Source: a virus
Lineage: Duplodnaviria; Heunggongvirae; Uroviricota; Caudoviricetes
IMG/VR virus record: IMGVR_UViG_2684622618_000022
Length of the DNA: 5,117 nucleotides
Reading direction: 5' to 3' (one strand)
Every line of letters begins with the position of its first letter. Position 1 is the stretch's first letter. The notes beneath the pieces are model-generated. The model saw only the letters and a program-made list of their open reading frames with translations, ran no database searches and was not told the origin of the DNA. The position numbers and the translations under genes were made by a program. Shown one piece after another: positions 2,612 through 3,574 of the stretch.

Positions 2612-3574
2612 ATGAGCAGCAAGCTTCATGGTCTTGTCTGGGAAGGGTGCGCCTTCACCGGCATGATCTTATCCAGGGTGGCGGTTATGGCCCGTCTTGC
2701 AGACTACAGCAATGACGAGGGCGTGTCATGGCCTGCCATTGAAACTATCCGGCGTCAGATCGGTGCAAGAAGTGAATCCACAGTGAAATCGGCTATTGCA
2801 GAACTGGCGAAAGAGGGCTGGCTGACGAAGGAAGAGCGTAAGGTCGGTGGGCGTAATGTAAGCAATATCTATCGGCTTAATGTGGAAAAACTCGAAGCAG
2901 CTGCTGCGGCGGCGCGTGAGTCATATAAACCGAAAAGAAAAATTAGCCCGGCAAAAAATGACCCGTTAACAGTTGACCCGTCAAATATTGCCCCCTCAAC
3001 GGTTGACCCGTCAAATTTTGATGGATCAACTGTTGATAACAAACTGCCGATTAGGGGGGCGATGATTGACCCCGATCCGTCAGTATTAAAACCTGATCCG
3101 TCAGATAAAAGATCTTCTTGTCCGGACGCTTCGCAACCGGACCCGCAGACGGCTGAACAGAATTTTTTAACCCGACACCCTGACGCGGTTGTGTTCAGTG
3201 CGAAAAAACGCCAGTGGGGAAGTCAGGAAGATTTGGTGTGCGCACAGTGGATCTGGGGACGAATCGTGAGTCTTTACGAGCAGGCGGCCAGCGATGATGG
3301 CGAGATCACGAGACCGAAAGAACCCAACTGGACTGCATGGGCCAATGACGTGCGGACAATGCGGATGCTGGATGGCAGAACTCACAGACAAATTTGTGAA
3401 ATGTTTGGGCGTCTCCAGCGGGATTCGTTCTGGGTAAAAAACATCATGAGTCCGGCAAAACTCCGGGAAAAATGGGATGAACTGGTTATCCGCCTGGGGC
3501 GTTCGCCCGCGCAGCGTTGCGTGAATCACATTTCTGAACCGGACACTGAAATACCGCCGGGATTCAGGGGGTGA
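2612..3574 (+). CDS. Phage replication initiator (lambda O / YdaU-like): N-terminal winged-helix domain, Asp/Pro-rich repetitive linker, DnaT-like C-terminus
   Basis: Track ORF 2597..3574 (GTG); I prefer the in-frame ATG at 2612 with GGGGG 5 nt upstream. N-terminus (LADYSNDEGVSWPAIETIRRQIGARSESTVKSAIAELAKEGWL) looks like a wHTH. The C-terminal ...HISEPDTEIPPGFRG matches my recollection of the E. coli DnaT C-terminus (...SEPDSQIPPGFRG). Gene order initiator then DnaC-like mirrors host dnaT-dnaC. Confidence 0.8.
   Translation: MSSKLHGLVWEGCAFTGMILSRVAVMARLADYSNDEGVSWPAIETIRRQIGARSESTVKSAIAELAKEGWLTKEERKVGGRNVSNIYRLNVEKLEAAAAAARESYKPKRKISPAKNDPLTVDPSNIAPSTVDPSNFDGSTVDNKLPIRGAMIDPDPSVLKPDPSDKRSSCPDASQPDPQTAEQNFLTRHPDAVVFSAKKRQWGSQEDLVCAQWIWGRIVSLYEQAASDDGEITRPKEPNWTAWANDVRTMRMLDGRTHRQICEMFGRLQRDSFWVKNIMSPAKLREKWDELVIRLGRSPAQRCVNHISEPDTEIPPGFRG
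2959..3112 (+). repeat. Iteron-like direct repeats inside the initiator gene; candidate prophage replication origin
   Basis: TGACCCGT at 2959-2966, 2974-2981 and 3004-3011. Near-identical 23-mers AACAGTTGACCCGTCAAATATTG (2968-2990) and AACGGTTGACCCGTCAAATTTTG (2998-3020), with a degenerate copy near 3027-3046. Second pair GATCCGTCAGTATTAAAA (3073-3090) and GATCCGTCAGATAAAAGA (3095-3112). They encode the TVDPSN-type linker repeats, as lambda ori iterons lie inside the O gene. Confidence 0.45.

Follow-up and report, generated by a model that had tools for sequence, protein, structure and literature searches.

Do the direct repeats in the middle of a prophage replication initiator gene merely encode a flexible protein linker, or do they also form the origin at which that initiator acts? 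The question is raised by a stretch of 5,117 nucleotides (nt) from a virus of the class Caudoviricetes (IMG/VR record IMGVR_UViG_2684622618_000022), called here the window, in which an open reading frame (ORF) of 320 amino acids (aa) on the plus strand (2612-3574), with a Pfam HTH_36 match, encodes an O-like initiator. The window comprises the immunity and replication region of the defective lambdoid prophage CP-933P of Escherichia coli O157:H7, a prophage identical to Sp12 of strain Sakai. A first-pass annotation, made from the sequence alone, had proposed that iteron-like repeats inside the initiator gene act as lambda-style origin sites and at the same time serve as linker codons. It had named conservation of the repeats as DNA in homologous initiator genes as a test, and the outcome of that comparison supports the proposal. 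Segment 2957-3118 is likely to be the lambda-type replication origin of the CP-933P/Sp12 module, placed inside the gene of its own initiator.

A 15-bp array and two GATC boxes in the initiator gene

The repeats sit between the DNA-binding N-terminal domain of the initiator, which ends at aa 104, and the C-terminal domain, which starts at aa 178. A repeat search resolves them into an array of six units of 15 base pairs (bp), or five codons each (2957-3046), which are regarded as candidate iterons given the family-wide conservation of a TGA-N4-TCA core at a 15-bp period and in a fixed frame. By codon, units 1 to 3 read AAT GAC CCG TTA ACA, GTT GAC CCG TCA AAT and ATT GCC CCC TCA ACG, and units 4 to 6 read GTT GAC CCG TCA AAT, TTT GAT GGA TCA ACT and GTT GAT AAC AAA CTG. 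The corresponding 12-mers are ATGACCCGTTAA at 2958, TTGACCCGTCAA at 2973, TTGCCCCCTCAA at 2988, TTGACCCGTCAA again at 3003 and TTGATGGATCAA at 3018, followed by a degenerate remnant at 3032-3046. With 5-bp arms around CC, the 12-mer TTGACCCGTCAA is palindromic; it is perfect at 2973 and 3003, and no further copy of it is found in the window, even with one mismatch.

The shorter core TGACCCGT is exact at 2959, 2974 and 3004, with one unrelated minus-strand copy at 4481; when one mismatch is allowed it has 10 matches in the window against 3.3 expected, a number reached by none of 200 shuffles. The 23-mers at 2968-2990 and 2998-3020 are identical at 21 of 23 positions and lie 30 bp apart. These cores and 23-mers, together with a second repeat pair, had been listed by the first-pass annotation, and repeat searches recover all of them at the positions it gave. 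Its description of the region as three cores and two pairs has to be replaced, however, by that of a 15-bp unit with about five array sites and two further boxes. Tandem Repeats Finder, which provided the tandem-repeat check suggested for this region, returns a period of 15 with 5.0 copies (2947-3021) and a period of 30 with 3.0 copies (2947-3036, score 89).

Perfect TGA-N4-TCA cores number four within about 130 bp, compared with 0.036 expected per 150 bp. When codons were permuted synonymously within the gene, with the protein and the codon counts kept, four or more cores arose with P = 0.0004 and an exact repeat of 15 nt with P = 0.009; since such permutation rarely reproduces either the cores or the exact repeat, the repetition of the DNA exceeds what the repetitive protein demands. 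Adjacent inverted units also give 2996-3036 the potential to form a near-perfect hairpin or cruciform of 41 nt, and folding of 2950-3120 as single-stranded DNA yields -25.8 kcal/mol (z = -3.55 against shuffles). This predicted hairpin was considered as an element of its own and is taken to be a by-product of the adjacent inverted units.

Two GATCCGTCAG boxes lie 3' of the array, at 3074 and 3095, in the longer repeats CCCGATCCGTCAG (3071-3083) and CCTGATCCGTCAG (3092-3104), which are 21 bp apart. GATC box 1 (CCGATCCGTCAG, 3072-3083, core CGATCCGTCA) is a distal site with a Dam site, and GATC box 2 (CTGATCCGTCAG, 3093-3104), 21 bp further on, has the core TGATCCGTCA at 3094, which also fits TGA-N4-TCA. 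The isolated boxes favour TGA-N4-TCA as the true register of the sites. GATC is frequent here, with four sites in 3024-3114 compared with 19 in the whole window. Box 2 interrupts an A/T-rich patch (GTATTAAAACC ... GATAAAAGATCTTCTT, 3084-3118, local A+T content 0.63-0.67) that is a candidate unwinding element. Averaged over 82 loci of the family, the A+T content peaks at 0.71-0.74 between +7 and +45 downstream of box 1 and is nowhere higher in the 250 bp on either side. This peak falls in the window at about 3083-3112, and the window value, 0.63-0.67 over 3080-3119, is weaker than that of lambda.

Conservation of the sites as DNA and their exchange with the N-terminal domain

The homologous genes compared here number 83, none identical to another, and represent about 80 Enterobacterales species and phages; the majority come from the 80 loci of a one-genome-per-species scan. 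Phage homologues of about 50% identity, found by tblastn, come from SfII, SfIV, LLS, vB_EcoS-733R5, Klebsiella Kp4866-6, Yersinia YeP1 and phiP27, while a scan of viral contigs yielded almost only near-identical E. coli prophage fragments and is informative for polymorphism only. All homologues have a five-residue periodic linker directly after the N-terminal domain, followed by a 'GGDPSV..DPSD' motif, and the array and boxes occupy the same gene position in the 83 genes. Two subfamilies can be distinguished. The window type (MSSKLHGLVWEG...) is found in Escherichia, Klebsiella, Erwinia, Mixta, Edwardsiella and Morganella, with units such as ATT GAC CCC TCA AAT, and the SfIV type has the unit TCA AAA TCT GAC GCA.

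Codon choice in these linkers is nearly fixed at the positions that make up the DNA core. Among 253 SfIV-type units picked by peptide pattern alone, the first Ser is encoded by TCA in 246, the codon before Asp/Glu is NNT in 86% whichever residue it specifies (TCT, TTT, CCT, TAT, ACT and ATT for S, F, P, Y, T and I), and the central codon is free. The SfIV-type GGDPS box uses GAT for Asp in 67 of 67 cases, CCG for Pro in 63 and, for Ser, TCA in 57 or TTA in 10, and the box of the window subfamily reads GAT CCG TCA in all loci inspected. As a control within the same genes, the top codon averages 0.49 (range 0.35-0.78) at winged-helix residues that are at least 90% conserved. Over all Ser codons, TCA accounts for 53% in the linkers compared with 16% elsewhere, and the density of TGA-N4-TCA is 18.2 per kb in the linkers compared with 0.30 per kb in the remainder of the loci; its sites share one frame in 322 of 323 cases, have a modal spacing of 15 bp and encode at least 15 different tripeptides. 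The window subfamily contains both orientations of the same 12-mer, with TTGACCCCTCAA encoding DPS and its reverse complement TTGAGGGGTCAA encoding EGS, and since the 12-mer is kept in both orientations while the peptide changes, the constraint acts on the DNA. At the level of sequence comparison, the array and the boxes are conserved as DNA and not as protein.

Some variation is seen among close E. coli relatives, in which the array differs in length by whole 15-bp units (proteins of 320, 315, 310 and 305 aa) and in one allele (L160) 21 bp are missing between the GATC boxes. A likeness of the bottom-strand GATCTTTTATCTG (3102-3114) to the 13-mers of oriC was set aside, because the GATC at 3111 is not kept in SfIV-type genes.

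A second line of evidence comes from the way in which these genes are assembled. Partial matches in relatives place a mosaic junction zone at 3107-3140, between a module formed by the N-terminal domain with the array and boxes and another formed by the C-terminal domain. E. coli matches that contain the C-terminal half alone start at query position 511, which is window position 3107, Klebsiella phage matches start at 3074, and the gene of strain SMN152SH1 is near-identical across the array and both boxes, with divergence setting in at about 3135. Both subfamilies, across the 83 genes, are joined directly after the boxes to at least three types of C-terminal domain (lambda-O-like, TIGR02220-like and others), so the array and boxes always accompany the N-terminal domain while the C-terminal domain is swapped. 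The A/T-rich patch aattttttaa at 3161-3170, to which the first-pass annotation had drawn attention, does exist but lies beyond this junction, in the C-terminal module, and the patch conserved in the family is instead the one at about 3083-3112.

More distant initiators show repeats of their own at the same place. The initiator of E. coli WCHEC025943 (L003 2332-2503) has the C-terminal domain of the window, an unrelated N-terminal domain and its own mid-gene repeats, five of them at a 23-bp period and different in sequence, followed by an A-rich 12-bp repeat. Homologues of the N-terminal domain at about 35% identity (phi24B O, ST64B Sb42, Pseudomonas LESphi3, Vibrio D75 and Aggregatibacter S1249) each have three to six repeats of their own directly after that domain, with periods of 17-24 bp and, in several cases, visible dyad symmetry. 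Because the array is exchanged together with the N-terminal and not with the C-terminal domain, the repeats track the DNA-binding domain, as would be expected of its binding sites.

Two further observations concern these relatives. An identical 11-mer, AGAACCAGTCA, is present in three copies in Salmonella phage ST64B (L173 1619-1658) and in two copies in Vibrio phage D75 (L175 1580-1607), in each case just downstream of one of two unrelated iteron sets, at the place that corresponds to the GATCCGTCA boxes in the window family. The 11-mer may represent a second origin element common to different specificity groups. NZ_CP148542.1, a circular 'plasmid' of 15,977 bp from E. coli of a dog, contains nothing besides a lambdoid early and lysis region with the initiator/origin module, has no typed plasmid replicon, and carries two compensating frameshifts around the GATC boxes of its O gene. 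It is either an autonomous element similar to lambda-dv or an artefact of assembly or sequencing, and it is not used as evidence here.

The initiator, the proposed origin and its rivals

The initiator gene (2612-3574, plus strand) corresponds to the RefSeq coding sequence WP_000095669.1 and matches PHROG 391, 'replication initiation O-like' (E 7e-115); RefSeq starts it at the ATG at 2612, and a GTG upstream at 2597 is also open. Its N-terminal winged-helix DNA-binding domain (aa 1-104, 2612-2923, plus strand; Pfam HTH_36 at aa 25-71, E 2e-6) is the presumed iteron-binding module. In an AlphaFold2 model built with 30 homologues, this domain has helices at residues 3-13, 20-31, 43-50, 55-67 and 91-104 and a wing at 71-89. 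Foldseek searches of the PDB with it return generic winged-helix regulators only (MarR, PadR, PaaX), with weak E values from 4e-3 to 3e-2, and regulators of these types typically bind palindromes as dimers. Pfam finds in the N-terminal domain only HTH_36 and a weak DnaD_N match, with no match to Phage_rep_O at E <= 0.01, and BLASTP detects no N-terminal similarity to lambda O. No plasmid Rep family appears among the Pfam, NCBIfam or PHROG results for the initiator.

Residues 109-173, the linker, are predicted to be disordered (predicted local distance difference test score, pLDDT, below 50). The first-pass annotation had placed the repeats between a winged helix-turn-helix domain and a DnaT-like domain, and the first of these assignments stands. 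The C-terminal domain (aa 178-295, 3143-3496, plus strand, pLDDT 80-92) is instead homologous to that of lambda O, residues 153-300 aligning by BLASTP with lambda O 145-277 at 34% identity over 148 aa (E 3e-25), and the likeness to DnaT does not extend beyond the last 21 residues. This C-terminal tail (3509-3571, plus strand), SEPDTEIPPGFRG, is of the type that ends E. coli DnaT and Rac YdaU, and is predicted by AlphaFold2 to be disordered. Searches with phmmer against the PDB DnaT chains 2ru8, 6aep and 9zbt align initiator residues 300-320 only, and the NCBIfam DnaT model is matched at its positions 159-179 only, with 16.8 bits against a cut-off of 201. Tails of this GFRG type end initiators with at least three different C-terminal domains in the family and are possibly a portable peptide that contacts the DnaB/DnaC helicase-loading machinery.

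From these parts a mechanism can be proposed. The N-terminal winged-helix domain would bind the palindromic TGA-N4-TCA sites, probably as dimers; the candidate sites follow one another closely at 15 bp in the array, and beyond it come two distal ones, which contain GATC and lie about two turns of the helix from each other. The resulting nucleoprotein complex would destabilise the A/T-rich stretch around the boxes (3084-3118), and, by analogy with lambda O and P and from the homology of the C-terminal domains, the lambda-O-like domain and the DnaT-like tail would then bring in host DnaB via the adjacent DnaC-type loader. The sites appear, on comparative evidence, to be written into the codons of the disordered linker, where the DNA signal can dictate codon choice because many different amino-acid sequences are acceptable in such a linker. 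In CP-933P/Sp12 the origin is probably inactive at its chromosomal site, since this prophage is both defective and repressed.

An origin at 2957-3118 is favoured because the array has the position of the lambda iterons, the C-terminal domains of the two initiators are homologous, and the segment with the boxes and the A/T-rich patch lies opposite the AT-rich segment of lambda. It is favoured also because the repeats are real, exceed both chance and what the protein imposes, and are under selection as DNA. The completeness of the surrounding lambdoid early region, the modularity of the N-terminal domain and array, and the placing of the sites in codons for a disordered linker point the same way, as does the fact that viable phages (SfII, SfIV, LLS and others) have a module of this kind as their only annotated initiator.

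Several points weigh against this reading. The literature searched, on oriJ, iterons, this initiator family and SfIV, yielded no experimental evidence for binding, unwinding or origin activity in the family and no account of this origin. In O157 Sakai treated with mitomycin C, Sp12 neither circularised nor replicated, and it was not packaged; its integrase and repressor are listed as disrupted and its replication genes were judged intact (PMC2669165). The A/T-rich patch of the window is modest (0.63-0.67) and short compared with that of lambda, and the array sites are centred 15 bp apart, closer than the iterons of known origins (20-24 bp in lambda); they may not all be occupied at once. Unit 3 is degraded in O157, with TTGCCCCCTCAA in place of the TTGACCCCTCAA of the majority allele. 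Finally, the loci are related by horizontal transfer and the counts given above are not independent events, a kinship that is controlled for because the contrast is drawn with the adjacent domain of the same genes.

A more elaborate form of the origin can be conceived, which we put forward tentatively and think rather unlikely. It would consist of two parts, a 15-bp specificity array that carries a filament-like complex and a separate Dam/SeqA-sensitive core shared across subfamilies, and it would amount to a general, undescribed grammar of the initiator superfamily. Adjacent sites of the array would lie on roughly opposite faces of the helix, in a complex unlike the lambda O-some. In the core, two or three GATCCGTCA boxes flanking A-rich 11-15-mers would make up an element for unwinding or for entry of the helicase, comparable to the 13-mers of oriC, which begin with GATC. 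Such a grammar is hinted at because the shared AGAACCAGTCA sits downstream of unrelated iterons in ST64B and D75.

Among the explanations that compete with an origin, the one that survives best, although it is improbable, holds that the element is a real DNA element with another function, such as an operator array for autoregulation or for blocking rightward transcription, a centromere-like site, or a recombination linker at the mosaic junction. Palindromic sites are indeed typical of operators, and a further core, TGACGTGTCA, spans the initiator stop codon and the start of the DnaC-like gene (3572-3581), but the two cores that lie outside the array are at chance level (1.2 per window). In both subfamilies the GATC boxes hardly vary and stand immediately upstream of the mosaic junction, and the box-to-box and unit-to-unit deletions of close relatives would fit a recombination linker or another such role; a recombination linker, however, needs neither a 15-bp periodic array of palindromes nor a conserved A/T peak. 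What argues most directly for an origin instead is the position, which is that of the lambda iterons and AT-rich tract in a gene with a homologous C-terminal domain. All initiator subfamilies examined carry repeats of their own at precisely this place, the signature of lambdoid O-gene origins (PMC7466680), and no other candidate origin is apparent in the module. Other functions could in any case coexist with that of an origin.

That the sites are bound not by the phage initiator but by a host factor, whether a global regulator that recognises TGA/TCA palindromes or SeqA/Dam at the GATC boxes, is very improbable. The core and the GATC boxes are shared by two subfamilies whose N-terminal domains are about 65% identical, and the crowding of GATC sites in 3024-3114 would suit such a factor, but N-terminal domains that are about 35% identical or unrelated come with entirely different repeats at the same place, and the repeats therefore track the initiator and not the host. 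DnaA boxes are not enriched either, with four one-mismatch matches compared with 3.8 expected. The consensus sites of FNR and CRP have a longer spacer, with N6 between the TGA and TCA cores, and TTGAT..ATCAA was rejected as an FNR site on account of this difference in spacing. A host factor may act at the GATC boxes alone.

The idea that the repeats are a protein feature only, an acidic, Ser-rich flexible linker produced by replication slippage whose DNA similarity is a by-product of duplication, agrees with the disorder predicted for the encoded segment and with the whole five-residue steps in which unit number varies among close relatives, but it is scarcely credible in the face of the synonymous permutation in the window (P = 0.0004), codon fixation across about 80 species (TCA 97%, NNT 86%, GAT 100%, compared with 0.49 in the adjacent domain), at least 15 tripeptides laid over one constant DNA core, and a 12-mer used in both orientations (DPS/EGS).

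The origin reading thus preferred carries a prediction for a very common type of initiator, the HTH_36 'helix-turn-helix domain-containing protein' of lambdoid prophages, which is distributed across Enterobacterales and Shigella serotype-converting phages and whose origin goes unmarked in current annotation. A motif that could be used for annotating such origins is TGA-N4-TCA with a 15-bp period together with GATCCGTCA boxes, and it could help to predict replication incompatibility or cross-activation among co-resident O157 prophages and to design recoding. The linker also offers a clear and quantifiable case of dual coding, in which a DNA signal overrides codon choice in a disordered protein segment. 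Nothing is added conceptually to the lambda paradigm, and the main value lies in annotation and in the example of dual coding.

Neighbouring genes and comparison with known systems

The initiator gene region (2597-3574) is 100% identical to E. coli O157:H7 chromosomes, and the gene has a match in 2,232 of 5,426 complete E. coli genomes. Its annotated surroundings comprise a disrupted integrase, insertion sequence (IS) elements, dicB, a ParE/PaaA2 toxin-antitoxin pair, regulators, the initiator, an ATP-binding loader, DUF1627, RusA and Q. The early region is complete for a lambdoid phage, with PaaR2 as the CI analogue, YdaS as Cro, YdaT as CII, the O-like initiator and a DnaC-like loader. Pfam matches identify ParE (937-1215, minus strand), PaaA2 (1217-1405, minus strand) and a YdaS/Cro-like regulator (1898-2200). 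The gene of the DnaC/IstB-type helicase loader, the partner of the initiator, follows at 3581-4321 on the plus strand (Pfam IstB_IS21, E 1.5e-19) and its product is 79% identical to Rac YdaV; the loader of Sp12 has been listed as DnaC-type (PMC2669165). In their study of this region of CP-933P, Jurenas et al. refer to the gene that follows ydaT as 'a homolog of the o gene' (PMC8630535).

The three-gene toxin-antitoxin locus paaR2-paaA2-parE2 (937-1800, minus strand) stands in the immunity region where cI would be expected; it has ParE_toxin and PaaA2 Pfam matches and has already been described for CP-933P; the PaaR2 ORF has no Pfam match. Part of the ydaT (CII-analogue) gene is hidden by a run of 50 N at 2300-2349. 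Downstream of the loader, a run of A at 4458-4464 has seven bases in the window compared with eight in O157 strain PV15-279, and the DUF1627 gene, a single coding sequence in PV15-279, is broken here into two ORFs (4347-4526 and 4448-5116). This reflects either a frameshift mutation or a homopolymer sequencing error. An Rfam scan of the window found no RNA family, and a promoter and terminator scan of 2500-3700 found nothing.

Four kinds of known replication system can be set beside the CP-933P module. Iteron plasmids share with it a winged-helix initiator, as judged from the topology of the AlphaFold2 model (the Foldseek matches being weak, with E above 1e-3), multiple direct sites next to an unwinding region, and GATC sites within that region. 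The origin oriR of P1, for example, has GATC repeats in its A/T-rich part. In contrast to the coding sites of the window with their 15-bp period, plasmid iterons are intergenic, measure about 19-22 bp and are spaced about two helical turns apart.

The other HTH_36-type initiators (phi24B O, ST64B Sb42, SfII/SfIV) belong to the same family by their N-terminal domain and have dyad repeats right after it, in three to nine copies; neither their records nor the literature searched gives an origin for them. SfIV-type genes have the core, the 15-bp period and the GATC boxes of the window, whereas the distant members differ in having 17-24-bp periods and unrelated repeat sequences.

Rac, with its ydaU-ydaV genes, shows the same order of racR/ydaS/ydaT, initiator and loader, with a loader that is 79% identical, and its initiator ends in a PPGFRG-type tail as well. 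The ydaU gene also contains internal direct repeats, spaced 33, 33 and 12 bp, that differ from those of the window in sequence and spacing, and the N-terminal domain of YdaU, DUF1376, is unrelated. In K-12 these are four mid-gene repeats of the AAGCAGATGTTCAA type (L170 3972-4063). Rac has been reported to possess an active origin, oriJ (PMC3945230), and the ydaU repeat set is a candidate for its position.

The fourth system is lambda. The lambdoid origin consists of iterons and an AT-rich tract in the middle of O (PMC7466680), and in lambda, as in the window, the origin lies inside the initiator gene, with annotated iterons at +348 to +432 nt into O compared with +345 to +434 for the array. 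Both have dyad-symmetric repeats followed downstream by an A/T-rich segment, C-terminal domains that are homologous (34% identity, E 3e-25), and an N-terminal domain that forms one exchangeable module with its iterons. The alignment with lambda O begins with DPDPSVLKPDPSDKRSS of the window opposite DTKDTITKEKRKDYSS of lambda, the latter being encoded by the codons of lambda's AT-rich origin segment. The differences are the following: the N-terminal domain of the window is Pfam HTH_36 and not of the lambda O N-terminal family, its site is the 12-bp TGA-N4-TCA compared with four 18-bp iterons in lambda, its period is 15 bp compared with 20-24 bp, two boxes with GATC break up its A/T tract, which is also the weaker one, and its partner is a DnaC/IstB-type loader instead of lambda P, with an additional DnaT-like tail on the initiator. 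In terms of kind, the element is probably one already known, a lambda-type origin with a different specificity module.

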